A stretch of DNA of 64,000 bases from Nitrospinales bacterium (GCA_046757665.1 JBHHYO010000002.1:32001-96000); one strand, 5' to 3'; shown: positions 1 to 53,192, counted from the first letter of the stretch. Translations and numbers: made by a program. The notes: generated from the sequence alone by a model not told the origin.

Positions 1-710
1 TTTCCAACAGCCTGGGCGTCGCCGACGAGGGCGCACTGGGCCTTGAGGATTTTCTCTATATCGGCGGCTGGATTACCAAGGCCGTCGACATCCCCATCAT
101 CTGCGACGCAGATACCGGTTTCCAAAACATTGGAGAAACCGTAAGGACATATATTGAGGCGGGGTTTTCAGGATTACATATTGAGGACCAGATTTTCCCA
201 AAAAGGTGCGGTCATTTATCCGGAAAGGAAGTGATTGCAAGAGATGAGATGATTGCCAAAATAAAAGAAGCTTGCGCGGCCCGCGACCGGTACGATACGG
301 AATTTGTCATCATCGCCCGAACCGACGCGCGTGGCGCAACCAATATCGACAACGACTCCCAACTCAATGAATCCATCACGAGAGGAAAATTGTATCGGGA
401 CGCGGGAGCGGACATGATCTTTCCCGAGTCTCTCAGAAATAAAGACGAGTTCGCGGAGTATAGAAGCAAAGTTTCCGGCGACTTACTTGCCAACATGACG
501 GAATTCGGCAAAACACCTTACCTTAAGGCAAGGGAATTCATGGAACTGGGGTATAAAATCATTCTCTTCCCCGTTTCCCTGTTCAGATACCATGCCGGAC
601 AGACGAAATCTTTTCTCGCCAGGTTAAAAGAAGAGGGCAGTCAAAAGGAATTGACGCCGGAGATGATGCACAGGTCGGAAATTAACGACATCCTCAATTA
701 TAAGCCATAG
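1..710 (+). CDS. prpB: 2-methylisocitrate lyase (ICL/PEP-mutase family), 5' truncated by window edge
   Basis: Frame open from nt 3: ...DADTGF...LHIEDQIFPKRCGHLSGK...IARTDA...AGADMIFPE...LANMTEFGKTP; KRCGH motif is PrpB-type; next to a citrate synthase homologue. Confidence 0.85.
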   Translation, partial: SNSLGVADEGALGLEDFLYIGGWITKAVDIPIICDADTGFQNIGETVRTYIEAGFSGLHIEDQIFPKRCGHLSGKEVIARDEMIAKIKEACAARDRYDTEFVIIARTDARGATNIDNDSQLNESITRGKLYRDAGADMIFPESLRNKDEFAEYRSKVSGDLLANMTEFGKTPYLKAREFMELGYKIILFPVSLFRYHAGQTKSFLARLKEEGSQKELTPEMMHRSEINDILNYKP

Positions 711-719
711 GAACTGACA

Positions 720-1898
720 ATGAATACAATTGACACAGGTCTTGACGGTGTGCCCGTCTGCACCTCTGATATATCCCTGACAACATTGGGAGCGGATGGA
801 AACCCCATTCTCCTGTACCGGGGATACAGCATATTTGATCTTGTCAAAGGTTTTTTTGAAGAAAGCGTTTATCTGCTCCTTCAAGGCCATCTACCCAGTA
901 AGGACCAATTCGACGCTTTCACCCAGCAACTCAACACAAACCGCAGTCTCGGTCGACGAATCATCGAACACATGAAAAGTTATCCTGAAAATGTTCACAT
1001 GATGGACTTTCTCCTGACCACTCTGTCCTACGCGCGAATGTTCGATGAGGATTATCACAACCCTTTGTGGCAAAGCCCAAAGTCGGAGGCTGACAAGCTG
1101 GCAAACCTTATTCTCAAAACCGGGATGCGCATGGGCGCAAAGATTCCAACCATCATCGCCAATGGATACAGAATACAGAGCGGAAAACCCGTTGTTCCAC
1201 ACAACCCATCCTTGAACTACGCCGCCAATTTTCTGCACATGCTGGGCATCGAACCCGAAGACGAAGCGGTAAAAGCGCTGAACACCGTGCTTATTCTTTA
1301 TTTGGAGCACACCATCAACTGCTCCACCTTCGCCTCCCTGGTTGCGGAATCATCGGGAACGGACCCCTATTCACCTCTGCTGGCCGGGGGAATCTCTTTA
1401 AAGGGAGTCTTTCATGGCGGGGCAAATGAGTGCACGGCCGATATGCTGGAAGAAATCGGCAAACCGGAAAATGCCGAGGCATATATCCACGGCAAGCTAG
1501 AAAGAAAGGAAATCGTTCCCGGGTTCGGCCATCGCTTGAAACACTATAAAGATAATGTCGAATCAAGAGTACGCATCGCCGAAGGAATCGCCAGGCCGCT
1601 TGCGAAAAAAAGGGGGCAAGGTCATTTATTTGAGATCTATGACATCATCAGCCGGATCATGCACAACGAAAAGGGACGCACCCCAAATGCCGATTTGCCC
1701 ATCTGTATTCTTTTAAAAATCATCGGCGTGCCCAAAACCCTCAACACACCCCTGTTCCAGGCAAGCCGGCATTTCGGCTGGGTGGCCAACAACGTAAGAC
1801 AACGAAAGGCCAACGGCCCTTTATATCGACCCACGCAAAAATACACCGGCCCCGGCACGGATAAAATAAAAACTTATGTCCCCCTGGAAAAACGATGA
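720..1898 (+). CDS. prpC: citrate synthase family, probably 2-methylcitrate synthase
   Basis: GLDGV N-terminus, LYRGY, EHTINCSTF, HGGANE, GFGHR, PNAD, YRPTQKY motifs; follows prpB after 9 nt. Confidence 0.7.
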   Translation: MNTIDTGLDGVPVCTSDISLTTLGADGNPILLYRGYSIFDLVKGFFEESVYLLLQGHLPSKDQFDAFTQQLNTNRSLGRRIIEHMKSYPENVHMMDFLLTTLSYARMFDEDYHNPLWQSPKSEADKLANLILKTGMRMGAKIPTIIANGYRIQSGKPVVPHNPSLNYAANFLHMLGIEPEDEAVKALNTVLILYLEHTINCSTFASLVAESSGTDPYSPLLAGGISLKGVFHGGANECTADMLEEIGKPENAEAYIHGKLERKEIVPGFGHRLKHYKDNVESRVRIAEGIARPLAKKRGQGHLFEIYDIISRIMHNEKGRTPNADLPICILLKIIGVPKTLNTPLFQASRHFGWVANNVRQRKANGPLYRPTQKYTGPGTDKIKTYVPLEKR

Positions 1899-1904
1899 TT
1901 CAAA

Positions 1905-3206
1905 ATGACCCAACATAAAATTCGCGGTTTCATCGGTGTCAAAAGCAATGACGGCCACGACGCCGCCATTCTGGTCGTTGCCGACACCCTGAAAAAGGGT
2001 GGTATTGAAGTGATCCTTGGCGGTTATGATCTAAGCGTCGACAAATTTGTCGAAGCCATTATCCAGGAAGGCGTACATTTCGCCGGCATCAGTTCATACA
2101 ACGGCGGTCACATCCCCTTTTTCAAGGCGATAAAAAAAAATTTACAAAACCGTCATTACCCGCATATTCATCTGATCGGCGGCGGCGGAGCAACAATCAC
2201 ACCGGATGATATTGAACGTCTCGAATGCGAGGCCGGCATTGATAAAATTTTTCGAAGCGGCGAGGCAAACCTGATCGTACCATTTATCAACGACCATTAT
2301 GATTTTTCCGTTGTTCCCGACCATCCCGAAAAGCTTCTGAAGGATTTGCCGGAAGGTGACGTAGCGGCCATCTCCTGCTTGATGAATCTGGCCGAGGAAA
2401 AAGCTCGCCTGGATACTTTGCTCGACAAAAAGAAGGCGGAGCTGAACATTGCGGCCGATCCGCAACAAGCTCACCGATTACTGGATGAACCTCTTGAAGA
2501 AAACGGACCGACAGGACGGAAGGTATTCGAACAGTCGAAACGCTATGCGATCTGCTTGTCGAAACTGGACGGCCTGACCGACAAAGCCCCAACCAGGGTT
2601 TACGGAATAACCGGCCGTGGCGGGTCCGGCAAAAGCACCTTGCTGGATGAGATCATTCTTCGCTTCTTTCACGACAAGCGAATGAACGACAGAAAAATTG
2701 CCATCCTTGCCGTCGATCCCACCTCAGACCGTTCCGGCGGCGCTCTTCTGGCAGATCGCATCGCATACATGTATGCCACGGACAAAACCTGGGTCGATAC
2801 AAGTAGAATTTTTATACGAAGCGTCGCTTCACGCGGTTACGGCAACGGCGTCGCCCGGGCGCTTCCGGATATGGTGAAAATTTTGAAAACCGCCGGATAT
2901 GACGTGTTTATCGAATCCTACGGAACCGGTCAACCCGACACAGGAATTACCGGCTTGACCGACCAATCCATCCTTGTCATCACACCGGATATCGGCGGCG
3001 CATCGCAAATTGCCAAAGAGGAAATGCTGGGACTGCCGGAAGTCTACATTGTCCTGAACAAAAACGAACTTCGCGGCGCAAGACACGTCATAAGCTTATT
3101 GCAAGGCAAGGTCAGCGACGACCGGTTGTTCCTCACAACCGCCATCCAGCATCGCAATTCCGGTGTCGACCGACTTTATCAATCGCTAACCGAAGGACAT
3201 GTCTGA
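1905..3206 (+). CDS. cobalamin-binding domain + MeaB-type GTPase (N-terminal half of an IcmF-like mutase)
   Basis: DGHDAA and SSYNGGH B12-binding motifs; P-loop GITGRGGSGKST, AVDPTS, GGALLADRI, RSVASRG, NKNE. Confidence 0.85.
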   Translation: MTQHKIRGFIGVKSNDGHDAAILVVADTLKKGGIEVILGGYDLSVDKFVEAIIQEGVHFAGISSYNGGHIPFFKAIKKNLQNRHYPHIHLIGGGGATITPDDIERLECEAGIDKIFRSGEANLIVPFINDHYDFSVVPDHPEKLLKDLPEGDVAAISCLMNLAEEKARLDTLLDKKKAELNIAADPQQAHRLLDEPLEENGPTGRKVFEQSKRYAICLSKLDGLTDKAPTRVYGITGRGGSGKSTLLDEIILRFFHDKRMNDRKIAILAVDPTSDRSGGALLADRIAYMYATDKTWVDTSRIFIRSVASRGYGNGVARALPDMVKILKTAGYDVFIESYGTGQPDTGITGLTDQSILVITPDIGGASQIAKEEMLGLPEVYIVLNKNELRGARHVISLLQGKVSDDRLFLTTAIQHRNSGVDRLYQSLTEGHV

Positions 3207-4950
3207 GATGTCCCTGGCCGAAATTATCAATGCAAATGAAAATTATAATCGATCCGTCGAAGCCTCAGTGGAAAAGGCCAAAAAGAACCGGGCCTACCAA
3301 AATAAACTCCAGCGGGAATGGGATGAAAAACGACACACCATCGTATCGCACAAATTGCCGACAGGAATTGACGTCCCCCTGATTGCGGTTCCCTGTATGG
3401 ACCATCCGGCACAGATAGCCCGTTACCAAGGAGAATGGGGGTTTCCGGGAGAGTTTCCATACGGTTTATCCATTTATCCAAAAACTTTCCTGATTATTGA
3501 CGGAAAGCGCGAGCACGAAGAACCCACCAGGATATTCGCGGGCCTTGGATCTCCCGAAATGACCAACGCCCGATTTCATCTCATCATGGGGCAACAACAA
3601 TCCAGGCGGCTGAGCACCGCATTCGATACCAATACTCTGCTGGGAAGAAGCGCCGACAACCCCGATTACCTCCTGGACGTCGGCGAGGGCGGCGTATCGG
3701 TTTCAACCTACCAGGATATTCTCACGCTATATAACGGTTTTTTTTCGGACGATGCCAGCATCTCCATGACGATCAACGGCCCTTCCCTTTGGATGACCGC
3801 CGCCCGTTTTCAAGCGGCCAGAGAACGCGGACAGAATTTGAAAAAAATCCGGGGAACCTCGCAAACCGATCCGTGCAAGGAAGATGACGCCCAAAACGAA
3901 CTGCTTTTTCCCCTGGATAAATCCATCAAGCTGGCAATGGACATGTTTGAATGGTGTGCGCAAAACACCCCATCTTATTATCCGATCAATGTCAGCGGTT
4001 ACCATATCGAACAAAAAGGCGCCACGCCGATCCAACAAGCCGCCTTCACCCTGGCAAACGGATTCGTTTATGTCGATGCCGCTTTGCAACGCGGAATGAG
4101 CATCAATTCCATCGGCAAGCGTCTTCCTTTCTTTTACACATCGGGGATGGAAATCGAATACATCGCCCTGTTAAGCGCCGTGAGAAGAATCTGGGCGGTA
4201 GCCTTACGGGATGTCTATGGCGCGGATGACCCGGCCGCGCAAAAATTGAAGGCCCACGTACAAACATCCGGAAGAAGCCTGTACGAGCGGGAAATCCGGA
4301 ATAACATCACTCGGACGGCTCTCGAATTATTTCATGCTTTGTTGAATTATCCGCAAGCCCTCCACAGCAATTCGTATGATGAACCAATCACGACACCCAC
4401 GGAAGAAGCCGTTCGCATTGCCTCAGATGCGCAAGCTATCCTGTTTGAAGAAATGGGCGGATTCAAGGATATGATGGCGCACTTAAGCGACGGCTCCGGG
4501 CGAATGCAAGTTTATCATTTGGTCATGAAAGGTGTTCTGGATTATTTCCGGCAAATTGACGAATTCGGCGGCACCCTGCAGGCAAAAGCCGACGGATTTT
4601 TCCGCGACGAAATCGCACAATCATCCGCCTTGTACGACAAACAGGTGCACACCGGTGAAAGACGGATTATTGCGATCAATCGCTACCGGCAAGGGCGGAA
4701 AGAAAACAAGGCCGTCCCGCGCGTGGAAATTCCATGGGACCTCAAACAAAAGCGTTTTGAAGACGTAAAACGGTTCAAGAGCCAAAGGGACCAAAGAAAA
4801 GTCAAAGAAAAAATCCTGCAATTGCAAAACACGGCGGACAAGGACGACAATATCTTTGAGATAACACTGGAAATCGTTAAGGACGTAACCATTGATGAAT
4901 GGACCCGAGCCCTTCAAGAAGTTTATGGAATGTATCGAAGAAAAATTTAG
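3199..4950 (+). CDS. acyl-CoA mutase substrate-binding domain (C-terminal half of an IcmF-like isobutyryl-CoA mutase)
   Basis: PGEFPY, PTRIFAG, RLSTAFD, SMTING, SGYHI, FTLANGF, HVQTSGRSL, LHSNSYDEPITTPT match IcmF/MCM motifs; start 3199 or 3208 (AAGGA at 3193-3197 suits 3208). Confidence 0.85.
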   Translation: MSEMSLAEIINANENYNRSVEASVEKAKKNRAYQNKLQREWDEKRHTIVSHKLPTGIDVPLIAVPCMDHPAQIARYQGEWGFPGEFPYGLSIYPKTFLIIDGKREHEEPTRIFAGLGSPEMTNARFHLIMGQQQSRRLSTAFDTNTLLGRSADNPDYLLDVGEGGVSVSTYQDILTLYNGFFSDDASISMTINGPSLWMTAARFQAARERGQNLKKIRGTSQTDPCKEDDAQNELLFPLDKSIKLAMDMFEWCAQNTPSYYPINVSGYHIEQKGATPIQQAAFTLANGFVYVDAALQRGMSINSIGKRLPFFYTSGMEIEYIALLSAVRRIWAVALRDVYGADDPAAQKLKAHVQTSGRSLYEREIRNNITRTALELFHALLNYPQALHSNSYDEPITTPTEEAVRIASDAQAILFEEMGGFKDMMAHLSDGSGRMQVYHLVMKGVLDYFRQIDEFGGTLQAKADGFFRDEIAQSSALYDKQVHTGERRIIAINRYRQGRKENKAVPRVEIPWDLKQKRFEDVKRFKSQRDQRKVKEKILQLQNTADKDDNIFEITLEIVKDVTIDEWTRALQEVYGMYRRKI

Positions 4951-11950: not shown

Positions 11951-12117
11951 ACGGATCGATCGAAGCCGAAATCACCAGCACATTCGGATGATGGCTTCCG
12001 CCTGTTTTATTACTTGGCATTACCGGTCATTCTATGTCAGGATATTATCGCCGCCCCTGGAACCGGCCGCGAGGGGCCTCTTTGGCTTGTACAGAAAGAA
12101 CGATTTGGAGAAATAAA

Positions 12118-12882
12118 TTGTTTGTGGGTTCCAAGCTCTGGAAAGGGCAAAAACATTATCTCAACAAGATGACTCTGGCGGATCTGGTGGCGGCCTATTT
12201 CGCCTATCCCGCCATCCAGGCCTACCTTTCTCTCACCGCAGTCAGCATCGGGCTGACCCTCCTTTGGGCGAAAGATATCGGGGCCATCGTTCTGTCTGTC
12301 GGCGCGGCAGTGGTGATTTACGGATTAGTCTGGTACCTTCTGCACCGATTCATTCTCCACGGACAGTTTCTCTACAAATCGCCCCGCACGGCGGCTCTGT
12401 GGAAACGCATCCACTTCGATCATCATCAGGACCCCAACGACCTCGGTGTTTTGTTCGGCGCACTGCATACCACCCTGCCGACGATTTTTTTCATGACCGT
12501 CCCGATAGGCTGGCTGATCGGCGGCCCGGCCGGCGGCGCGGCGGCGTTCGCGGCGGGGCTGGTGACCACCTGTTATTATGAGTTCTGCCATTGCATCCAG
12601 CATCTGGCCTATACCCCAAAATGGGCCTTTCTCCGCCGCATCAAGAAACTTCACCTGGCGCATCATTTCCATAACGAGCAAGGCAATTACGGCATCACAA
12701 ATTTTTTCTGGGACCGGCTCGCGGGAACCTATTACCCAAGCACCAACCAAGTCCCACGTAGCGCCACCGTTTTCAACCTCGGTTATGTGAACAAGGAATC
12801 CGAGCAATTCCCCTGGGTGGCAGAACTGTCCGGCGCAAATGTTGACACCGATCCAGGTTGCGCCCAAAGAAAAACGGGCTAA
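12118..12882 (+). CDS. fatty-acid hydroxylase / sterol desaturase superfamily membrane diiron enzyme
   Basis: His boxes HRFILH, HFDHH, HCIQH, HLAHH and NYGITNFFWDR; TTG start at 12118 with GGAG 7 nt upstream. Confidence 0.85.
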   Translation: MFVGSKLWKGQKHYLNKMTLADLVAAYFAYPAIQAYLSLTAVSIGLTLLWAKDIGAIVLSVGAAVVIYGLVWYLLHRFILHGQFLYKSPRTAALWKRIHFDHHQDPNDLGVLFGALHTTLPTIFFMTVPIGWLIGGPAGGAAAFAAGLVTTCYYEFCHCIQHLAYTPKWAFLRRIKKLHLAHHFHNEQGNYGITNFFWDRLAGTYYPSTNQVPRSATVFNLGYVNKESEQFPWVAELSGANVDTDPGCAQRKTG

Positions 12883-12957: not shown

Positions 12958-15369
12958 TCAGTTTCTTGGTTCCTTTCTTCTGTTGTACTTGTAAAAGACC
13001 AGCTTGTGCGTATCCAGCTCAAACAAGGCCGGCAACATGAACAACGCGCAAGCCGTGCACGTTAATATCCCCAATTGAACCAGGGAAGCGATGGACTGAA
13101 TACCGGCGTGCGACGCAATATTCAAACTGCCGTATCCGGCCAGGCTGGTCAAAGCCGAAAGGATGATAGCGCTCCCCGTTTCTTTTAAGGAAGTCAACGA
13201 TCCTTCTCGGGAATAATCCTGTATGTGATGAGCCAGATAGATGCAATGATCAATCATGATCCCGACAATCGAAGGTAGCATAACGAAGTTGATGAAATTA
13301 AGCTTGATATGTGAAACGGACAACAAGGCACCCGTCAAGGTCAAGCCGGCAAACAAAGGCAAAAAAGTTTTTAAAGCCAACCGCATACTCTGCATGTCAA
13401 TTACCAAAATTAAAAACACAAGGCCCATGGCTATTGCAAGAGTCCAGGGGCCTTTAGTTTTCACCCAGTCCAGGATTTTTGCCGCGAGCAGGTTTTCATT
13501 CATAACCGCGGTCTGTATGTGCCTTGGCTCGAGAGCCCGTTTCAAGTCCTGGATTTCCTTTTCCAGTTGATAAATATTCCTCACGTCAAAAAAATCCTTT
13601 TCGGCAGGGGAAAGAATCAGAACCAGATACTCCTCCTGAACTTTAAACTTTTTAACAAGAATTTTCGGCACCCGGGATTCATCAAAAGGTTTGGGGTTGA
13701 CCAGCCGCTGAAGCTTGCGGAACCTCGATTCGCCAAGGGACAATTTAATAATATCTTTTTCCCTCTCAAATAGCTCCCGGATGCGGACAAGCACGTCCTT
13801 TTTCGATTCATATTCCCGTGCGCTAAACAGATTCAGGGAATGATGCAATCCAATAGTGGAATTCTCCCCATTTTTCTTTTTGATCCTGGCCAGAGCCTGG
13901 TGAATATAAAAAAGGTTTTCCTTTTTCGGCGTGAGGATCAACGTGGGAGAAAATGCAAAACCGAAGTCCCTGGTAGTGGCCGTTTCATAATCTCCCGCCG
14001 GTGATTCGCCGCGTAATTTTTTGAAATCGTATTCAAATTGCACGCCAGGCAACAAAAAAAGGCTGGAAACCGTCAGCAACATAAAAAGAACCGTCAGGAA
14101 ATAAGGCGTGTTTGAATAAAGCCTGGAAATCTTCAACGTAAACAACCGGGGCCTGGGTTTTCCAACCCAATGGATTTTATTGTAAAAAAGCACCTGCGCG
14201 GGGAAGATAAAATGATAGGTAATAAAAGCAAGGGTGATCCCCATGGCGGCAATCATTCCGAACTCGGAGAATCCCCTGAATTCAGAAAAGATCAAAACGG
14301 AAAAGACACTGATGGTGGTAAACATGGCCACCATCGCGGATCGTCCTACCTGGGTCATAACCAGTTCCGTAGCGGCGGGAATGGATTTCCCCTTGACCAG
14401 TTCCTGTTTGAAGCGGATATAAAAATGAATTCCATAATCGACCCCAAGCCCCAGGAGAATCGCAACTAAAAATCCTGTGACGATATTGACATGGCCGATG
14501 ACCAACCGTGTCAACGCAAAGGTATACGTCAGGGACAAGAGAAGAGGAAAAATAATCAGCGGAATCGAAAACACCGAACGGGTATAAATCAAAATGAGGG
14601 CGGTGGTCAGAAAAACGGCCAAAACCGCCGAACGCTTCAAGTCGCGTATTACCGTTTGATTCTCCTCCAGCCTCACCATCAGGGACCCGGTCAATTTGAT
14701 TTGAAGGCCGGGTATTTTGCTTTCCAAACCGGAGCGGCGGATTTCTTCCCGAACCCGAGCGACAAAATTTTCTGTGAAGGTTGTGTCCGTTACGGTTCCT
14801 CTTGGCTGTACGAAAATGTAATAATTTTTTTTACTCTTTCCCCGGTAGTAAGGGTTGATCTCTTCAAACAGGTTGTAATCATCAGCCAAAGATTGAAGCC
14901 TTTCGGGATTGAACAGTTCGGTTCCCAAACCAAAACCTCCCAGTTCCTCCCGGGCGTACTCGACCGCTTCCTGCATGAGGGACTCCAGTTCAAGTAAATC
15001 CTGCCTGGAAACCAAAAGGAGCTGTCGATTGTTCAAATAATCCTTGGGAATATGGGAATCGACGTAATAAGTATCGGGCAATTTTTCCAACCGGCGCGTC
15101 AATTCATTCAGAACCATTGGAGCTTTATTCTGGTTCAAACCTTCCAGAACAAGGACAAGGGGGCCGGAGCCTCCCGTCTTCTCGACCACATGATTGAACT
15201 CCTTGACCAGTTGCAGATTTTCGGGGAGAAGATTATCCATCCGCGGGTTGTACGTCAAACCCGACGCGATCATCAGCGAAAAGCCGCTTGAAACAACAGC
15301 CAGCGCCAAAAGAGTCCCCGGGTATTTTGAGGTGATGTTCTGATAAAACCATTTAAGAATTGTTTTCAT
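12958..15369 (-). CDS. MMPL/RND-family lipid transporter
   Basis: Two TM bundles with GLGVDYGIH and GIMIDHCIY motifs separated by periplasmic domains; start MKTILK at 15369 overlaps the upstream gene. Confidence 0.88.
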   Translation of the reverse strand: MKTILKWFYQNITSKYPGTLLALAVVSSGFSLMIASGLTYNPRMDNLLPENLQLVKEFNHVVEKTGGSGPLVLVLEGLNQNKAPMVLNELTRRLEKLPDTYYVDSHIPKDYLNNRQLLLVSRQDLLELESLMQEAVEYAREELGGFGLGTELFNPERLQSLADDYNLFEEINPYYRGKSKKNYYIFVQPRGTVTDTTFTENFVARVREEIRRSGLESKIPGLQIKLTGSLMVRLEENQTVIRDLKRSAVLAVFLTTALILIYTRSVFSIPLIIFPLLLSLTYTFALTRLVIGHVNIVTGFLVAILLGLGVDYGIHFYIRFKQELVKGKSIPAATELVMTQVGRSAMVAMFTTISVFSVLIFSEFRGFSEFGMIAAMGITLAFITYHFIFPAQVLFYNKIHWVGKPRPRLFTLKISRLYSNTPYFLTVLFMLLTVSSLFLLPGVQFEYDFKKLRGESPAGDYETATTRDFGFAFSPTLILTPKKENLFYIHQALARIKKKNGENSTIGLHHSLNLFSAREYESKKDVLVRIRELFEREKDIIKLSLGESRFRKLQRLVNPKPFDESRVPKILVKKFKVQEEYLVLILSPAEKDFFDVRNIYQLEKEIQDLKRALEPRHIQTAVMNENLLAAKILDWVKTKGPWTLAIAMGLVFLILVIDMQSMRLALKTFLPLFAGLTLTGALLSVSHIKLNFINFVMLPSIVGIMIDHCIYLAHHIQDYSREGSLTSLKETGSAIILSALTSLAGYGSLNIASHAGIQSIASLVQLGILTCTACALFMLPALFELDTHKLVFYKYNRRKEPRN

Positions 15370-16210
15370 TGCACAGCAAAAACCGATGAAGTCCGAGCGT
15401 TGTAATATATTGTGCCCCCATGAGGTAAGCCATGGGGACCAGGAAAACGTCAAGAACACCAAGAACGGCAAACAGGGCGATAAGAAAAAGAGGCAGGTCG
15501 AGACCGTTCCACTTCCAGACAGCCATCATAAGTTTGGCTTTTTGGTAATACTGTTCCCGTTGCCGCTCCGTCAGCAGAGTTTTTTCAACAATGTTTTTTT
15601 TCTCTTCATCAAGCCGGCTGAAAGAAAGCCAGCGTCCCTGAAACAAAAACCGCTGAAACTGCAAGTAATAAAAATAACTCCGGAGAACAACGGACTTCTC
15701 CTTTCTCATTTTCTGAAAAGTTTCCAGAATTTCCCTTTTATTCCCGTCGTATCCATCGCGCACCAACGTGGTCATGCTTTGTTTGCAATAATCGTAGGAT
15801 ATGGCCCGCAAAATAGTTAACAGCGCGATGCAGGCCAGGGAACCATAGTATGCCCCCATGCCAACCATGATGCCGATGACGACGGCGCCATAAGCAATGT
15901 AACCGGCAATGCCGTCGAGGAGCCTTCCCCATTCACTTGATCGGCCCGTGGCTCGTGCAAGTTGTCCGTCCACGCAATCCAGGATCAGGGTAATCTCCAA
16001 AAGCACCCCTCCCCAAACCATCGACGAGACACTCCCCCGGCTAAAGACGTACCCCGACCACATACCAAACAGAACGGAAGCATAGGTCACCTGATTGGGA
16101 GTGACCGCGGTTTTTTTCAAAAAGCCAACCATGGCTCCGGCAACAGGCACATGCAAATAACGGTTGACCGGTTCTTCAAGGTCTTTCAGAAAATGGCCGG
16201 ATTTTTCCAT
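15353..16210 (-). CDS. CDP-alcohol phosphotransferase family protein
   Basis: TPNQVT and DCVDGQLARATGRSSEWGRLLD signature. Confidence 0.88.
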   Translation of the reverse strand: MEKSGHFLKDLEEPVNRYLHVPVAGAMVGFLKKTAVTPNQVTYASVLFGMWSGYVFSRGSVSSMVWGGVLLEITLILDCVDGQLARATGRSSEWGRLLDGIAGYIAYGAVVIGIMVGMGAYYGSLACIALLTILRAISYDYCKQSMTTLVRDGYDGNKREILETFQKMRKEKSVVLRSYFYYLQFQRFLFQGRWLSFSRLDEEKKNIVEKTLLTERQREQYYQKAKLMMAVWKWNGLDLPLFLIALFAVLGVLDVFLVPMAYLMGAQYITTLGLHRFLLCNENNS

Positions 16211-16222
16211 AAGGACGATGTA

Positions 16223-17230
16223 TTACAACCAGCGATGATTCTTATACCAATCAAGCGTTTTCGCCAGTCCCGCATTTAAATCATAACGTGGCTGAAATTC
16301 ATATTGATCCATGAATTTTTCGCATGATGCGGTCCAGGAGCTTTGACAAATATCGATCAGCCTCTGCCTGTCCAGCAGAGCGGGTTTCGTGCCGAACCGC
16401 GCCAGCGTTTCGCAAAGCAATGCCAAAGGCATCAAGGCACCTTCCGGAACCCTCAGCGATCGCGCCTTCACACCAAGAGCCCGCATGGCCGCCTGAGCCA
16501 CATCCTCCCATGAGTACGTATTGCCGTCGGTGACAAAAAAAATATTCTCCTCTTGCCGGGGAGCGGCCGCGGCCATGACCATGGCGCGCACCAGGTCGGC
16601 AACATAAATCAAGGAAAGGTCGCGCCGGGTTCGACCGATTTTAATGTTCCATCCGCGACTCACCGTCCTGAGATAGACGAAAAAATTGTTCTCCCTGGGA
16701 CCGTAAACCACGGGGGGGCGTAGAATGACGATGGGCAGGGAAGAGGAAAACTGTCGGGCGATTTCCTCCCCGGCAAGCTTGGATTGTCCATAAAATGTAA
16801 GAGGACGGCAGGGCGTTTCCTCATTAACCGGTCGATCCGGCTCTGCCGGGCCAACGGCCGCCAGACTGCTCAAGTGAACGACCGCCTTGAGCCGTTTTCC
16901 ACGGGCCACGCAGTTGCTGTAAAACGGAGAGCAGAGGTCGGCATTGATTCGGAAATATTCTTGCCGCGTTCTGGCTTGCGTCAATCCCGCGCAGTGAAAC
17001 AAATATTCCGCATCTTCCAGGCCATCGCCAAGCCGTTCCAATCGAGTCAGGTCCGCAGTATGAAGATGTACCCGGGAGGAATCGAGCCAGCGAAGGTCAC
17101 TGGTCTTGCGAACCAGACAATGGACCGTGCAACCGAGGCTTAGGAGATAATCAACCAGATGACTGCCGATAAACCCGGACGCGCCTGTGACCAGCACAGT
17201 GGCGGGGTCAATTTTCGCAGGTTCGTTCAT
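16223..17230 (-). CDS. NAD-dependent epimerase/reductase (extended SDR), candidate ceramide reductase CerR
   Basis: VTGASGFIG, HCAG, SSLAA, YGQSK, RPPVVYGP; directly downstream of bCerS and spt. Confidence 0.75.
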   Translation of the reverse strand: MNEPAKIDPATVLVTGASGFIGSHLVDYLLSLGCTVHCLVRKTSDLRWLDSSRVHLHTADLTRLERLGDGLEDAEYLFHCAGLTQARTRQEYFRINADLCSPFYSNCVARGKRLKAVVHLSSLAAVGPAEPDRPVNEETPCRPLTFYGQSKLAGEEIARQFSSSLPIVILRPPVVYGPRENNFFVYLRTVSRGWNIKIGRTRRDLSLIYVADLVRAMVMAAAAPRQEENIFFVTDGNTYSWEDVAQAAMRALGVKARSLRVPEGALMPLALLCETLARFGTKPALLDRQRLIDICQSSWTASCEKFMDQYEFQPRYDLNAGLAKTLDWYKNHRWL

Positions 17231-18332
17231 AGATGCGGTGCCGCTTGTAAACATCGGCGCCCATTCGATAAAGAGGAGCCAACATCGCCTGGTTATCTTC
17301 CAAAATCCAGGACATTTCGCACAACGCAACTTTTTGGTCTAGGCACCGCCTATAAGTCTTGTGATAAAAAGAAACATCAATTCCCAAGCGTTGGAACTTC
17401 TTTTTTACACCGAGGGTCAGAACCCGGTAGGAATCGATTTTCTTCCTGTTCATTAAAAACCTGGCCCATCCAAAGGGAAAGAGCTTGCCGTCCAGGGTTT
17501 TGAGCACTTGATTAATGTCGGGAAGAGTCAGGGAGAAACCCACCGGTTCATCCTTAATTTCCGCAATCAAACAAAACTCGGGCTCAATGAAATGTTTCAT
17601 CTCATCGGCGGCAAAGTAAAATTCGTCGCGAGTCATGGGCGTGAACCCCCAGTTGCGCTCCCAGGCGGAATTATAAATTTCCCATAAAACGTCTATTTCT
17701 TTTTGAAACTGATCCATCCGCAGACAGCGCACGGTAAACCGGTTTCTTTTTTGAATTCGGACCATCGCTTGCTCCAGGTACTCCGGCATTCTTATGAAAG
17801 GCGCGATTTTCAGGCAAACAAGGTCTTTGGCTTTTGTCAACCCCCAGCCTTCCAGCAGGCTCGAATAATAAGGAGGATTATAAGGTATCCCCAACATGGG
17901 AGCCTTGTCGAATCCCTCTACAAGCAGGCCGCATTCGTGGTTGATGGAGAGGTTCATAGGGCCCAGAAGTTTTTTGAGTCCCTTCGCCCGGCACCCTTCA
18001 TAGACGACATCCAGCAACCGGTCCGCCACCTCCCGGTCGTCAATGGACTCAAACAGGCCGAAAAAACCGACTTCCTGCGAGTGAAACGTATTGTGTGCGT
18101 GATCTACGACAAAGGCAATCCGTCCCACCGGTTGCCTGTTTTCCCCCAGAGCCAGAAAAAAATCGACTTCGGCATGGTCGAAGAACGGGTTGGCTTTTGG
18201 ATCCAGAAATTTTTTGCGTTCCACAAGCAAGGGAGGAACCCATCGGGAGTCATTCTTGTAAATTTCCCAAGGCAACTTGATGAATGCGTGCTTGTCTGCC
18301 GGCGTTTCGACCTTTTGAATTTCCGGGCGCAT
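17208..18332 (-). CDS. bacterial ceramide synthase (bCerS, GNAT-fold/YghO-like)
   Basis: WVPPL, NPFF, GRI, GFFGLFE, GPMNLSINHECGLLVEGF, YNPPYY, AWERNWGF, PDIN, EMSWILEDN; TAATG-coupled to spt. Confidence 0.82.
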   Translation of the reverse strand: MRPEIQKVETPADKHAFIKLPWEIYKNDSRWVPPLLVERKKFLDPKANPFFDHAEVDFFLALGENRQPVGRIAFVVDHAHNTFHSQEVGFFGLFESIDDREVADRLLDVVYEGCRAKGLKKLLGPMNLSINHECGLLVEGFDKAPMLGIPYNPPYYSSLLEGWGLTKAKDLVCLKIAPFIRMPEYLEQAMVRIQKRNRFTVRCLRMDQFQKEIDVLWEIYNSAWERNWGFTPMTRDEFYFAADEMKHFIEPEFCLIAEIKDEPVGFSLTLPDINQVLKTLDGKLFPFGWARFLMNRKKIDSYRVLTLGVKKKFQRLGIDVSFYHKTYRRCLDQKVALCEMSWILEDNQAMLAPLYRMGADVYKRHRIYERTCEN

Positions 18333-19660
18333 TACCGCGGAATAATTCCCAGCTCGGTGCCGAACTTCTTGAAAGCCGACAGCACCCGGTCGAGGTCTTC
18401 CCGAGTATGGGAAGAGGTGTAACTGGAACGAATCATGGCATTGAGGGGGGGAACTACAGGGGATACCGCCACGCCCGCAAAAACTCCATCATTGAACAAA
18501 AGCTGGTTGAGATACAAAGTCAAGGCTTCGTCGCCAATCTTGATGGGAACGATGGGAACCTGATTGTTGTTGATCTGGAAACCCATCTCGAAAAATCCCT
18601 TTTTGATATAAGAGGTATTTTCATGCAACCGGTCGATGCGTTCGGTTTCCCGGCTCATAACGTCGAGGGCGGCGATCACTCCGGCAACCGACGCAGGCGG
18701 CAAGGCCGCCGTAAAAATAAACGCCGAGGCCTTGTGGCGGATAAACTCGGTGACCTTGGAATTGGCCGAAACGAAACCACCAATGGACCCCAGGCTCTTG
18801 GAAAAAGTCCCGACATAAATGTCGATTTCCTTTTCCAGGTCGAAATAACTTGTCAACCCTTTTCCACGGTCTCCCATAACGCCCAGCCCGTGAGCCTCAT
18901 CCACCAGAACGCTGGCCCCATAGTCTTTCGCCAGCTTGACGATGCCGGGAAGATTGGCCACATCACCGCTCATGCTGAACACACTGTCCGTAATAATCAG
19001 TTTGCCGTCAACATCGGCATACCTCTTCAGACAGTACTCCAGATGATCCATGTCATTGTGCCGATAGCGCACGGTCTTGCCCGGCGCAATGGCGCACCCC
19101 TCATAAATGCTGGCATGATTTTCGCGGTCCGAAAAAGCAATGTCCTTGCGTCCCAGCAAACACGAGATGGTCCCCTGATTGGCCTGGAATCCGGTGGACA
19201 TAACAATCGTGTCCTCGCGGCCGAGAAAATCCGACAACGTCTTTTCCAACGTCCTGTGCAGGGTAAGGGTGCCGTTGAGAAACCGACTGCCGGTACAACC
19301 CGCGCCGAATTTTTCCAGCGCCTTTGTCGCCGCGGCAATTACGCGGGGATCCTTGGTCAAGCCCAAATAATTATTGGTCGAAACGGTTATAACGTCCCTG
19401 CCTTCGATAACCACATGAGCGCCATCCATCTCCTCGGTCTCGCGGAAATACGGATAAATGCCCAAATCCTTGGCTTGATCGGGAGCGTCATAACTGAAAC
19501 ACTTGGAAAGAATGCCCTCGCCTTCCTTGGTCAGAAGCCGCAAGTGCGCATTCTCAAAATCGAACTTCTTCTTTAATAAAGAAATAATTTTGTCACGTTT
19601 CAGATGAGGCGGGGTGTCTTCCGGAGTTTCGTCCAGAACCGGCTGATGAAGATTTTTCAC
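18332..19660 (-). CDS. spt: serine palmitoyltransferase (alpha-oxoamine synthase family)
   Basis: GIYPYFRE, NNYLGL, GSRFLNGT, NHASI, DEAH, GTFSKSLGSIGG (PLP Lys); adjacent to bCerS/CerR homologues. Confidence 0.82.
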   Translation of the reverse strand: MKNLHQPVLDETPEDTPPHLKRDKIISLLKKKFDFENAHLRLLTKEGEGILSKCFSYDAPDQAKDLGIYPYFRETEEMDGAHVVIEGRDVITVSTNNYLGLTKDPRVIAAATKALEKFGAGCTGSRFLNGTLTLHRTLEKTLSDFLGREDTIVMSTGFQANQGTISCLLGRKDIAFSDRENHASIYEGCAIAPGKTVRYRHNDMDHLEYCLKRYADVDGKLIITDSVFSMSGDVANLPGIVKLAKDYGASVLVDEAHGLGVMGDRGKGLTSYFDLEKEIDIYVGTFSKSLGSIGGFVSANSKVTEFIRHKASAFIFTAALPPASVAGVIAALDVMSRETERIDRLHENTSYIKKGFFEMGFQINNNQVPIVPIKIGDEALTLYLNQLLFNDGVFAGVAVSPVVPPLNAMIRSSYTSSHTREDLDRVLSAFKKFGTELGIIPR

Positions 19661-20241
19661 GGCTTCGAAATTATCCTTTTAGGTTGGAGTTTAAATTTGA
19701 GAAACCAGGAGCTTCTCTGAAGGCTCGACAGACACGGTTTCTCAGGATCTTTTTCTATTCACCGGAAACTCTTTAATTATTTCCCAACGCAAATCACGCA
19801 AGGGTAACATTAAATGCCCGTTTTGACAAGCGAAACTATAAATTTTCGCAAATCATCGCTTAATTTAATTAAATTTAACTGCAACTCAAAAGCCGATTCG
19901 TTAACATTCCCGAAAACATCCAACTACAAATTTCCCTCCACGCCCCTTTTCCGGGCCGTTGAACAACGACTCAAAAATCATCTTCACCAAAAACCTGCCG
20001 CACTTTCAACGAAGCGACCCGGTTTGCGCCGCACTTTTTCCTTAACGGCATCTTGCCGCTATTTATGACCCCGCCCACGCAAGAACTTTCCGGCGCGGAG
20101 GTTTTATAAAACCCGCCAAGGGAGACTTATGAAATCCGAAGGCTTGTAAAGGAGCAGATGAAACGAGAAAGCGGCCGGGAAAAAACCGCGACACGAATCC
20201 GCGAAAGACCCGGACGCCAAACGGATAAGGCTGGCACGAAA

Positions 20242-20886
20242 TTAAAGTTTTTTGACCTGATTCTTGACCTGATAATAGCGGAAAAACGCGCCCATCATTA
20301 TAATAATCAACAGCGCCAAAACCATCAACGCCCCTTCCATGATAAGCGTCAAGGACAGAGGCATATTTTCCAGAATCCATACGACAATTTGATGCAACCC
20401 ATACCAGGAGTCGGGGTCGCTAAGCCAGGCCTGGAGCGCCGTACCCTGAAACAGGTAATTAAACGCAACGATAAGAGGAAACTCGGTCCACGTGCCGCTT
20501 TGCAACCAGAGAAACCCTTGATACCCCAGCAGGAAAAATCCGGAAAAAAATACCAGCGACGCCGACACAACGGCTATCCCGCCGACAAAGCCAAGAAAAA
20601 AATCCAGCGGCGTCAGCTTTCGCACAATTTCTTTAGACTCCGCCCAGCCTTTCAGGGCCATTTGTTTCGCGCGGATTTTCAGACGTTCCTTCAGCTCCAC
20701 GCAAACCAGTATCGCAGGCTCAACCCAATGGGTTATCTCCGCGATCCAGCGGGAACCATTGAACCCTCTTTCATAAAATTTTCTTTCCGACATGGGATTG
20801 CCCTCCCCGTATTTGGAAACCGCGGGATTGCGGCTTTTTAACCTGGATCTTTCTTTTCGGTGGCGGTTCATCATTTCTCTACTCAA
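20242..20886 (-). CDS. hypothetical membrane protein
   Basis: 214-aa ORF with at least two clear hydrophobic helices and a basic C-terminus; start uncertain. Confidence 0.6.
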   Translation of the reverse strand: MSREMMNRHRKERSRLKSRNPAVSKYGEGNPMSERKFYERGFNGSRWIAEITHWVEPAILVCVELKERLKIRAKQMALKGWAESKEIVRKLTPLDFFLGFVGGIAVVSASLVFFSGFFLLGYQGFLWLQSGTWTEFPLIVAFNYLFQGTALQAWLSDPDSWYGLHQIVVWILENMPLSLTLIMEGALMVLALLIIIMMGAFFRYYQVKNQVKKL

Positions 20887-52412: not shown

Positions 52413-53192
52413 TCAACGAGCACGTTTCAAACTGTTTTTATTAAAATCCTTGTCATTCAATCCAACACGGAATGCGTACTCTTTCCAAAGCAACCGGGTT
52501 GTTTTTCCCGTCTGATGGTTGACCATGAACATTTCGTCGGGATACCAGTATTTGTCCAGATAGAGATGGTATCCCTTGAACGTCTGCGTTTTGAGCAGAG
52601 CGTTTTTGCGGTCATAATAATCGATCTTGAGCAAACGGTATTCCTTTTTATCAATCCACACAACCTGCCGGGTGTAGCCGGAGTTCCTGTACTCCGGGTA
52701 ACGCTCAACGACAAAACAATCCTGCCCTTCATAGGGCTCGTCGCGCAACCACTTGTAGGTGTATTTTTCAACCTCCTGGCTGGTGATATCCTCGTAGGCA
52801 AACTCACTGCCCATGAACGGGCCGGACTTGTTCGAGGAACTGATGCGCTTGACCCTTTTCAGGGCCGGCAAGTAGAGCCATTGATCGTCGTCGCCTTTCA
52901 GATGCGTATAATTCAGCAAGGCGGTGCCCTTGACATCCCGCGGCCGGTCAAAGATGACCAGGCTCTTATCGCCGTCCCGCCTCACCTCCAGAGTGCGATT
53001 GCGCATGTAACGGACACTTTCTTCCCCCTGGCGGTTTTTCAACGTCATAATCAGTTTAGCCTTAAAATCATGAAAATCGTCATACCGCCTGTCGGCCTCC
53101 CGGGCGATGGCCAGACCTTTTTCCTCCGGCGTCTCGGCGGCGGCCGGCAAGACCATCAGCAACAAAAGACCCGTCAAAAGATAGCGTTTCAT
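52413..53192 (-). CDS. outer-membrane lipoprotein-sorting (LolA-like) periplasmic protein
   Basis: Signal peptide, PRDVKGTALL, DDQWLYLPALKRVKRI, FMGSEFAYED; ATGA overlap with MMPL. Confidence 0.88.
   Translation of the reverse strand: MKRYLLTGLLLLMVLPAAAETPEEKGLAIAREADRRYDDFHDFKAKLIMTLKNRQGEESVRYMRNRTLEVRRDGDKSLVIFDRPRDVKGTALLNYTHLKGDDDQWLYLPALKRVKRISSSNKSGPFMGSEFAYEDITSQEVEKYTYKWLRDEPYEGQDCFVVERYPEYRNSGYTRQVVWIDKKEYRLLKIDYYDRKNALLKTQTFKGYHLYLDKYWYPDEMFMVNHQTGKTTRLLWKEYAFRVGLNDKDFNKNSLKRAR

Follow-up and report, generated by a model that had tools for sequence, protein, structure and literature searches.

A probable ceramide operon of Nitrospinota extended by two lineage-specific genes: a candidate head-group transferase and a candidate lipid exporter

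Introduction

Genes of the spt, bCerS and cerR types, whose products are associated with bacterial ceramide synthesis, have been reported bioinformatically in about 40 phyla (PMC11334938), and the N-acyltransferases listed as ‘aca: CC_1154, yghO ECD_02850’ are described as required for dihydroceramide (PMC9386255). Here, we describe a cluster of this kind in Nitrospinota, together with two genes that accompany it. The cluster lies in a stretch of 64,000 nucleotides (GCA_046757665.1 JBHHYO010000002.1:32001-96000; hereafter ‘the window’, with all positions counted from its first letter) and comprises five genes: three for the putative ceramide core, one for an atypical CDP-alcohol phosphotransferase (cdp), and one for a transporter of the RND superfamily (the pump). 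The window forms part of contig 2 of a Nitrospinota metagenome-assembled genome (2.97 Mb, 160 contigs, 97.6% complete) that probably derives from a hydrothermal-vent metagenome, and the organism is an uncultured relative of nitrite oxidisers. Nitrospinota are one of the main groups of nitrite oxidisers in the ocean.

For the steps that come after the ceramide core, precedents are described in Caulobacter. There, CC_1159/CpgA (CCNA_01217), a protein with a CDP-alcohol domain, is needed for ceramide diphosphoglycerate (CPG2), CpgD makes CDP-glycerate, which is the proposed donor, and CpgA is proposed to add phosphoglycerate to ceramide phosphoglycerate (PMC11324152, PMC12275187). The transport genes proposed for the same cluster are LptC2/F2/G2 and a flippase (PMC11324152). 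Transporters of the type encoded in the window are described in connection with other lipids: HpnN and BstA, both MmpL-type RND proteins, carry hopanoids or sterols toward the outer membrane (PMC11713862).

Gene order and co-occurrence in Nitrospinota

The five open reading frames (ORFs) are all on the minus strand, between positions 12958 and 19660, and follow the order spt-bcerS-cerR-like-cdp-pump (Table 1). The stop codon of spt and the ATG of bcerS share one base (TAATG, 18332), bcerS and the gene of the short-chain dehydrogenase/reductase (SDR) overlap by 23 nt (SDR ATG at 17230), a gap of 12 nt separates the SDR gene from cdp, and cdp overlaps the pump gene by 17 nt (pump ATG at 15369). 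A first-pass annotation, made from the sequence of the window, had listed these five genes and four junctions, and every coordinate, overlap and gap in it proved to be right. Its statement that the operon holds no acyl carrier protein, ceramide kinase or nucleotidyltransferase gene is likewise upheld, and the ORFs directly upstream (19814-20841), which have no Pfam match, add no acyl carrier protein, lipid kinase or nucleotidyltransferase domain. A scan for promoters and terminators was uninformative (for promoters, 3 candidate sites where chance predicts 6.1; for terminators, 18 where it predicts 12.4).

The gene order is conserved. In all 20 Nitrospinota genomes sampled, the order spt-gnat-sdr-cdp is kept (‘gnat’ being the bcerS homologue), and in 14 of these loci the pump gene directly follows cdp; it is upstream of spt in one locus and outside the locus in five, one of which ends 529 nt past cdp. 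The core order is also seen beyond the phylum, as plasmids of Rubrobacter and Streptomyces carry AOS-GNAT-SDR (where AOS is the alpha-oxoamine synthase family to which Spt belongs) in the same order as the window. Among 80 GNAT loci from many phyla (8 kb flanks, some loci stopping at contig edges; neighbours scored by tblastn at E<=1e-10), 73 have an spt-like gene, 63 an SDR gene, four cdp, one the pump and none the FA_hydroxylase gene discussed below. With the order recurring in 20 of 20 Nitrospinota loci, and with GNAT and spt-like genes so regularly found together across phyla, the arrangement exceeds chance.

The five genes also co-occur strictly. We surveyed 119 other Nitrospinota genomes, in which full-length cdp orthologues (39–58% identity) were found in 63 (one of them broken by stop codons, in genome G035, and two cut at contig ends, in G050 and G104), pump orthologues (59–68% identity) in 65, and bCerS orthologues (>50% identity) in 66, with all three together in 60. 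Every genome that is discordant for the three is at most 83% complete. In the subset of 57 genomes that are at least 90% complete, 33 have both cdp and the pump, 24 have neither and none has either alone; cdp and bCerS show the identical 33/0/24 pattern. Match coordinates place the pump gene within the cluster or next to it in ten genera, and the sister genus of the window organism (g2 in our labelling, five genomes) is without cdp, pump and bCerS. Thus distributed, cdp and the pump gene are two lineage-specific, co-inherited additions to the ceramide operon.

Table 1. Genes of the putative ceramide operon and an adjacent gene (positions within the window)
Gene and product	Coordinates	Strand	Remarks
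spt, serine-palmitoyltransferase-like alpha-oxoamine synthase (AOS)	18332-19660	-	442 aa, GTG start; Pfam Aminotran_1_2
bcerS, GNAT-like bacterial ceramide synthase homologue, YghO/CC_1154 family	17208-18332	-	374 aa; weak Pfam Acetyltransf_1
cerR-like extended SDR, NAD-dependent epimerase/dehydratase	16223-17230	-	335 aa; longest ORF starts 17329; Pfam Epimerase, E 7e-35
cdp, atypical CDP-alcohol phosphotransferase, candidate ceramide head-group transferase	15353-16210	-	285 aa; CDP-OH_P_transf PF01066
HpnN/MmpL-like RND transporter, candidate sphingolipid exporter	12958-15369	-	803 aa; longest ORF starts 15471; Pfam MMPL
FA_hydroxylase-family membrane oxygenase, probable ceramide hydroxylase/desaturase, inferred member	12034-12882	+	282 aa; PF04116

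The probable ceramide core

By family membership, the AOS of the operon is SPT-like, i.e. it resembles serine palmitoyltransferase. Its best NCBIfam match is SerpalmtaseCFB, the Bacteroidota-type SPT (461 bits), ahead of the models for the BioF/Kbl subfamily (392 bits), KBL (381 bits) and BioF (371 bits), all of these scores being under the respective cut-offs. Sequence matches in the PDB are led by the Sphingobacterium SPT (3a2b/8guh, 360 bits), followed by a Thermus AOS/KBL (301 bits), the Sphingomonas SPT (about 275 bits), KBL (252–262 bits), cysteate acyltransferase (228 bits) and BioF (189–208 bits). The window protein is 36% identical to the AOS of the ceramide cluster of Escherichia coli.

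The assignment as Spt in the first-pass annotation had been placed against BioF and KBL as the competing families, and phylogeny bears it out. In a maximum-likelihood tree (LG+G4, 38 rows, with a small reference set), the window Spt belongs to a 31-row clade (support 100/99) that also contains three SPT references, four Nitrospinota orthologues, the other 20 AOS proteins encoded next to bcerS (loci L005-L077; together with the four orthologues, all 24 that were sampled from loci L002-L077), the Rubrobacter and Streptomyces AOS with GNAT neighbours, and a Priestia plasmid AOS without a bcerS neighbour. Left out of this clade are four KBL and three BioF rows, including two paralogues from the genome of the window itself: a true KBL (625 bits, cut-off 493) and a BioF-like protein (366 bits). 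All three references pass the curated NCBI cut-offs for SPT (E. coli 599.9/500, Parabacteroides 683.8/640, Bacteroides 700.5/640); the E. coli reference, which sits on a long branch, is from strain PN43, with the gene arrangement described for BL21 (PMC9386255). The Nitrospinota proteins form a long separate branch within the SPT-like clade.

The GNAT protein encoded by bcerS is given a name by no Pfam or NCBIfam model, a PDB sequence search returned no meaningful relative, and an ESM Atlas search returned generic N-acetyltransferase clusters only. Its assignment was made via E. coli YghO, for which an orthologous relation to Caulobacter CC_1154 is listed (PMC9386255): the GNAT protein and YghO align over their full length (36% identity over 375 columns, E 3e-81). 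A tblastn search with the GNAT protein against plasmid records matched 46 records, that of YghO included, and at the E. coli locus yghO stands with lptF/lptG paralogues and genes for an AOS, an acyl carrier protein, an epimerase/dehydratase and a fatty acyl-AMP ligase, which is the gene set of BL21 (PMC9386255). One record, NZ_MG591698.1, is filed as an E. coli plasmid; besides the spt-yghO cluster, it carries genes of chromosomal type (lptF, lptG, the glc operon) and is probably a chromosomal fragment. The closest relatives of the GNAT protein are from Nitrospinota (Nitrospinaceae, Nitrospina, Nitromaritima; 55–67% identity), and the next, at about 43% identity, are from Acidobacteriota, Bdellovibrionota, Brocadiia and others. 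Full-length homology and the spt neighbourhood agree with the earlier proposal of a GNAT-fold bCerS and place the protein in the YghO/CC_1154 ceramide-synthase family.

The SDR gene, previously annotated as cerR-like, encodes a protein that is related, weakly but over the full length, to its counterpart of cerR type in the E. coli cluster. Its position between bcerS and cdp in all 20 sampled loci supports the role of a CerR. The presence of such a core is not surprising, since spt-bcerS-cerR clusters are already on record from so many phyla; judged from homology and gene order, the three genes very probably constitute an ordinary bacterial ceramide system that is newly placed in Nitrospinota.

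The CDP-alcohol phosphotransferase

The product of cdp matches PF01066 with 49.8 bits (cut-off 22). Its AF2 model (30 sequences, pLDDT 83.4) finds AF2299 as its best Foldseek match (TM 0.52, prob 1.00), followed by PIP synthases and IPCT-DIPPS. The signature of the family contains four Asp residues (D-x2-D-G-x2-A-R...G-x3-D-x3-D); the corresponding motif of the window protein is DCVDGQLARATGRSSEWGRLLDGIAG, in which the fourth Asp is replaced by Gly103. The fourth Asp of PgsA1 from Mycobacterium tuberculosis, D93, is a ligand of Mg-2 and is presumed to act as the catalytic base (PMC6506517). Across 30 aligned cdp sequences, the first three Asp residues, the Gly-x-x-Ala-Arg core and the Gly of the second motif are invariant. 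Some 95 residues, charged and helical, are inserted between the fourth and fifth membrane helices of the protein. A collection of 5.8 billion proteins contains 579 matches at E<=1e-10, and among the best 120 of these all that are named come from Nitrospinota.

The genome encodes six proteins of the CDP-alcohol family. Of the paralogues of cdp, PssA and those on contigs C76, C96 and C25 keep the fourth Asp, and the one on contig C81 has His. The last of these genes (L154:1257-2219) is located between a GT2 glycosyltransferase gene and genes for a polysaccharide flippase and a GNAT protein (Acetyltransf_6). A module of the CpgABC(D) type was not seen, as neither CpgB, CpgC nor CpgD/cytidylyltransferase was found in or next to the operon, and the only strong DAGK_cat match in the genome is on another contig.

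We file cdp as head-group-transferase-like, with one defining feature of its family failing. The first-pass annotation had the CDP-alcohol enzyme add a phospho-headgroup to ceramide; strict co-occurrence and linkage in Nitrospinota, together with the Caulobacter precedent, make that part of the proposal plausible, and the lack of the fourth Asp detracts from it. From its sequence and context, we put the chances that cdp acts on the ceramide lipid, as a candidate head-group transferase, at about even.

Possible head-group donors

The two MIPS genes of the genome each stand beside cytidylyltransferase and CDP-alcohol genes, and CDP-inositol is therefore probably available in the cell. At one of the two loci (L155:1691-6684 or L156:1971-4440, on contigs C96 and C25), MIPS is accompanied by genes for an NTP transferase, a 414-aa CDP-alcohol protein and a CMP-sugar-synthetase-like protein, and two flagellin genes follow directly downstream; the neighbour of the other MIPS gene encodes a 449-aa IPCT/DIPPS-like fusion. 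However, MIPS does not follow the cluster: it is absent from 15 of the 33 high-quality genomes that bear the cluster and present in 11 genomes without it. Inositol-phosphoceramide is thus not favoured as a general head group. Donors of the TagD/ECT type (CDP-ethanolamine or CDP-glycerol) were rejected for this genome, in which no TagD/ECT-type cytidylyltransferase was found and the PF01467 matches are CoaD, NadD and HldE only.

A third source of CMP-activated groups would be phosphonate metabolism. The genome encodes a 575-aa fusion of a PEP mutase (PepM; 351 bits, cut-off 320, TIGR02320) with an IspD/MobA-like nucleotidyltransferase (NTP_transf_3) at L144:5307-7034 on contig C108, and 88 of the 119 other Nitrospinota genomes have this fusion. 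Of the 33 high-quality genomes that bear the cluster, 32 contain the fusion, but so do 16 genomes without the cluster, so that a phosphonate head group is possible but not specifically indicated. In genomes G072, G036 and G019, the fusion gene is situated among housekeeping genes (rseP upstream, and proS, rimP, nusA and infB downstream); in the genome of the window, the downstream side is cut by the contig end. This distribution points to CMP-activated phosphonates as a trait shared throughout the order. A split, two-subunit decarboxylase (L152:9055-10288, contig C8) matches phosphonopyruvate and sulfopyruvate decarboxylases about equally; its genes adjoin those of an SDR and a LapB-like TPR protein, and it could partner the PEP mutase. 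It is conceivable, if rather improbable, that these parts combine into a phosphono-sphingolipid route, in which the PepM fusion would provide a CMP phosphonate, the Asp-less cdp would pass this group on to (hydroxy)ceramide, and delivery of the product to the outer membrane would fall to the HpnN-like pump. Such a system would be the first example both of a gene-level route to a ceramide phosphonate in bacteria and of an RND transporter that exports sphingolipids.

Within the window itself, a plus-strand cluster at 231-4950 contains a fragment of the PEP_mutase family (isocitrate-lyase-like), citrate synthase, a MeaB/B12-binding fusion and methylmalonyl-CoA mutase, a set that resembles a locus of propionate/methylcitrate metabolism more than one of phosphonate synthesis.

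The pump

The pump matches PF03176 (MMPL; 110.7 bits) in two stretches, one in each half of the protein, and its best PDB match is HpnN of Burkholderia (5khn), followed by MmpL5/4 and MmpL3. Elsewhere in the genome, a separate HpnN (630 bits) is encoded on contig C6 and a squalene-hopene cyclase on contig C3; because of this better HpnN and the cyclase, the operon pump is not needed for hopanoids. A literature search turned up no publication connecting pumps of the MmpL/HpnN type with sphingolipids. In the ceramide loci of E. coli and Roseomonas, as in Caulobacter, LptF/G paralogues are present. On the strength of its co-occurrence and linkage, we hold it slightly more probable than not that the pump carries the ceramide lipid. 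The window contains a second gene of the MMPL/HAE3-type RND class (53189-55486, minus strand), which has weak HpnN matches (70 and 47 bits) and is unrelated to the operon by position.

Putative tailoring genes

A gene of the FA_hydroxylase family, convergent with the operon, follows the pump gene (PF04116, 78 bits, cut-off 31; no NCBIfam model matched). Its product is 59% identical to that of a ‘sterol desaturase family’ gene of Roseomonas gilardii, and this gene overlaps the start of the bcerS homologue of that species. The matches of the window protein in the plasmid collection at E<=1e-30 are confined to 11 Roseomonas records and one Sphingomonas record. By analogy with Roseomonas, the FA_hydroxylase probably belongs to the ceramide system. 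The first-pass description of the operon as a self-contained unit consequently needs correction, as a gene outside its coordinates probably forms part of it and no donor-forming enzyme is encoded inside.

In genera g18, g20 and g22 (Nitrospina-type genomes), which lack the FA_hydroxylase gene, a fatty-acid desaturase gene that is absent from the genome of the window stands directly upstream of spt (L003:3940-5046; also L122, L126, L132 and L133), and it looks as though desaturase and FA_hydroxylase are alternatives that are mutually exclusive across genera. Additionally, genera g13, g14 and g15, as well as single genomes of g3 and g17, have a second, diverged bCerS paralogue (38–42% identity), with a second FA_hydroxylase gene about 15 kb from it in genomes G041, G042 and G046 (G041:C12:2001480-2017009, G042:C2:2865904-2882454, G046:C10:88774-104833). 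These pairs may represent a second sphingolipid-type locus.

Proposed pathway and rival explanations

We propose that the locus is a Nitrospinota ceramide operon extended by two lineage-specific genes, a reading that we hold to be moderately probable as a whole; each chemical step, the head group and the substrate of the pump are predictions from sequence. Spt would condense serine with an acyl thioester, likely acyl-CoA because the unit contains neither an acyl carrier protein nor an acyl-ACP synthetase, whereupon the YghO-type bCerS would add the N-acyl chain and the SDR would reduce the 3-keto group, which would give dihydroceramide. The FA_hydroxylase probably hydroxylates or desaturates this product. 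The atypical cdp, as the best candidate for this step, would then draw on a CMP-activated donor, formed by enzymes encoded at other loci of the genome, to attach a head group through a phosphate or phosphonate linkage, and the HpnN-like pump would move the finished lipid from the inner toward the outer membrane, which is the role proposed for LptF2/G2 in Caulobacter, E. coli B and Roseomonas. The roles of the pump and cdp are plausible on the grounds of strict co-occurrence and linkage in Nitrospinota and, for cdp, the precedent of CpgA.

A number of observations weigh against this proposal. At the level of the individual proteins, Spt scores below every NCBIfam SPT cut-off (CFB 461/640, BetaP 378/500, AlphaP 325/670), as does its Nitrospina orthologue for CFB (453 against 640); the similarity of the SDR to the epimerase/dehydratase of the E. 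coli spt-yghO cluster is weak (25% identity, 323 aa, E 6e-27), and its best NCBIfam match is HpnA (101 bits, cut-off 368); the pump scores 230 bits on the HpnN model and 197 bits on BstA, both far below the cut-offs (752 for HpnN), and 135 bits on a second HpnN model (cut-off 1100), the two HpnN models being TIGR03480 and NF052374. In cdp, the fourth Asp is Gly in 22 of 25 orthologues, which leaves the signature incomplete and means that ordinary catalysis cannot be assumed (the other three, all of genus g10, have Asp), and the similarity to the CpgA-like protein of Roseomonas is at the level of the motif only (38 bits). At the level of the genomes, no donor-forming gene is linked to the operon, orthologues of the FA_hydroxylase occur in 10 of the 119 genomes and never beside the cluster, and the pump gene is unlinked from the cluster in genera g18 and g22. 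Moreover, cdp orthologues are found in only 12 of 30 genera and the surveyed genomes are kin, so that the co-occurrence reflects few independent events. Among public sequencing runs, the stretch was found in two DNA runs of one hydrothermal-vent study, which is possibly its source, and in no RNA run; and a literature search, which did not cover the phylum list of PMC11334938, found no link between Nitrospina or Nitrospinota and sphingolipids.

Of the rival explanations, the most serious is that only the ceramide core is active, that the CDP-alcohol-like protein, no longer a working transferase, assists the pump as a lipid-binding, scaffold or hand-over partner (or has a hydrolytic or other non-canonical activity), and that plain or hydroxylated ceramide is exported. 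The substitution of the presumed catalytic residue, which four paralogues in the same genome retain, would follow naturally from such a loss, and the missing donor genes, the charged insertion between the fourth and fifth helices, and the position of cdp, which overlaps the pump gene and directly precedes it in most sampled loci, all fit the role of a partner. Yet the remaining motif residues are invariant, which argues for retained nucleotide and metal binding, the orthologues of genus g10 keep the Asp, and cdp remains adjacent to the SDR gene in g18 and g22, in which the pump gene is unlinked; we judge this explanation to be a real but minority prospect, at roughly one chance in five. The AOS might, alternatively, use alanine, glycine, cysteate or lysine, in which case the product would be a non-canonical amino-lipid (1-deoxy-ceramide-like, sulfonolipid-like or another N-acyl long-chain-base lipid). 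Alternative amino-acid substrates of Spt-like proteins are raised in PMC11334938, and the sub-threshold SPT scores, the long separate branch of the Nitrospinota proteins and the relationship to the cysteate acyltransferase structure could be taken in the same sense. However, SPT structures score far above the cysteate enzyme, a head-group transferase acting on the C1-OH would need a serine-derived base, and the partners encoded alongside, bCerS and the SDR, belong to ceramide synthesis, all of which makes this option improbable.

Two further explanations would detach genes from the ceramide pathway altogether. The SDR and the pump might be hopanoid genes (HpnA and HpnN) that stand beside ceramide genes by chance, given that these are their best NCBIfam matches and that the organism, with its squalene-hopene cyclase, makes hopanoids. 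This is highly unlikely: both scores are far short of the cut-offs, the better HpnN and the cyclase are on two other contigs, the pump has exactly the distribution of bCerS and cdp among the 57 high-quality genomes, and the SDR gene never leaves its place between bcerS and cdp in the 20 sampled loci. Least likely of all is that the AOS is a BioF/KBL paralogue in a cluster unrelated to sphingolipids. The protein does score 371–392 bits on the BioF/Kbl models, but the tree did not bear out a grouping with these families, as the SPT clade excludes both with strong support and the genome has a KBL and a BioF-like gene of its own; the bCerS neighbour, moreover, is kept across phyla.

Significance

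The proposal of an extended ceramide operon names candidates for two open steps, i.e. the addition of a phosphate head group to ceramide outside Caulobacter and the delivery of the lipid to the outer membrane. Most Nitrospinaceae-like genomes retain both candidates, which are inherited together with the ceramide genes, and Nitrospina can be cultured. If cdp is active without the presumed catalytic base, this would bear on the mechanism of CDP-alcohol phosphotransferases generally; and if Nitrospinota make lipids of this kind, the phylum would deserve consideration as a new source of the sphingolipids seen in marine lipidomes.

Comparison with known systems

The core of the operon is closest to the Spt-bCerS-CerR systems of Caulobacter and E. 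coli B (PMC9386255, PMC11087976, PMC11324152), in which the same three enzyme families are encoded in one cluster. Unlike the clusters described in those papers, the operon is without AcpR and AasR (acyl carrier protein and acyl-ACP synthetase) and LptF2/G2, it belongs to another phylum, and its Spt falls in the non-Rhodobacteria branch and is nearest to the Bacteroidota type. With CpgA of Caulobacter, cdp has in common that both are CDP-alcohol family membrane proteins encoded in a sphingolipid cluster, with a presumed ceramide-based acceptor; cdp differs in having Gly for the fourth Asp and in representing a subfamily that, among the named matches listed, is found only in Nitrospinota. The inositol-lipid cluster of the Bacteroides vulgatus type (NTP transferase, CDP-alcohol phosphatidyltransferase and HAD; PMC9246714) shares a Kennedy-type logic, in which a CDP-alcohol enzyme of a sphingolipid producer hands on a CMP-activated head group, but there the proposed acceptor is diacylglycerol and the genes are beside MIPS, whereas MIPS in Nitrospinota does not track the cluster.

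For transport, LptC2/LptF2/LptG2 of proteobacteria are likewise dedicated genes in a sphingolipid cluster, but they are of an unrelated family (ABC/Lpt rather than RND). The pump of the window shares its MMPL/HAE3-type RND architecture, and a proposed outward movement of lipid, with BstA and with HpnN of Burkholderia multivorans (5khn), from which it is set apart by its partner: a ceramide operon in place of hopanoid or sterol genes.

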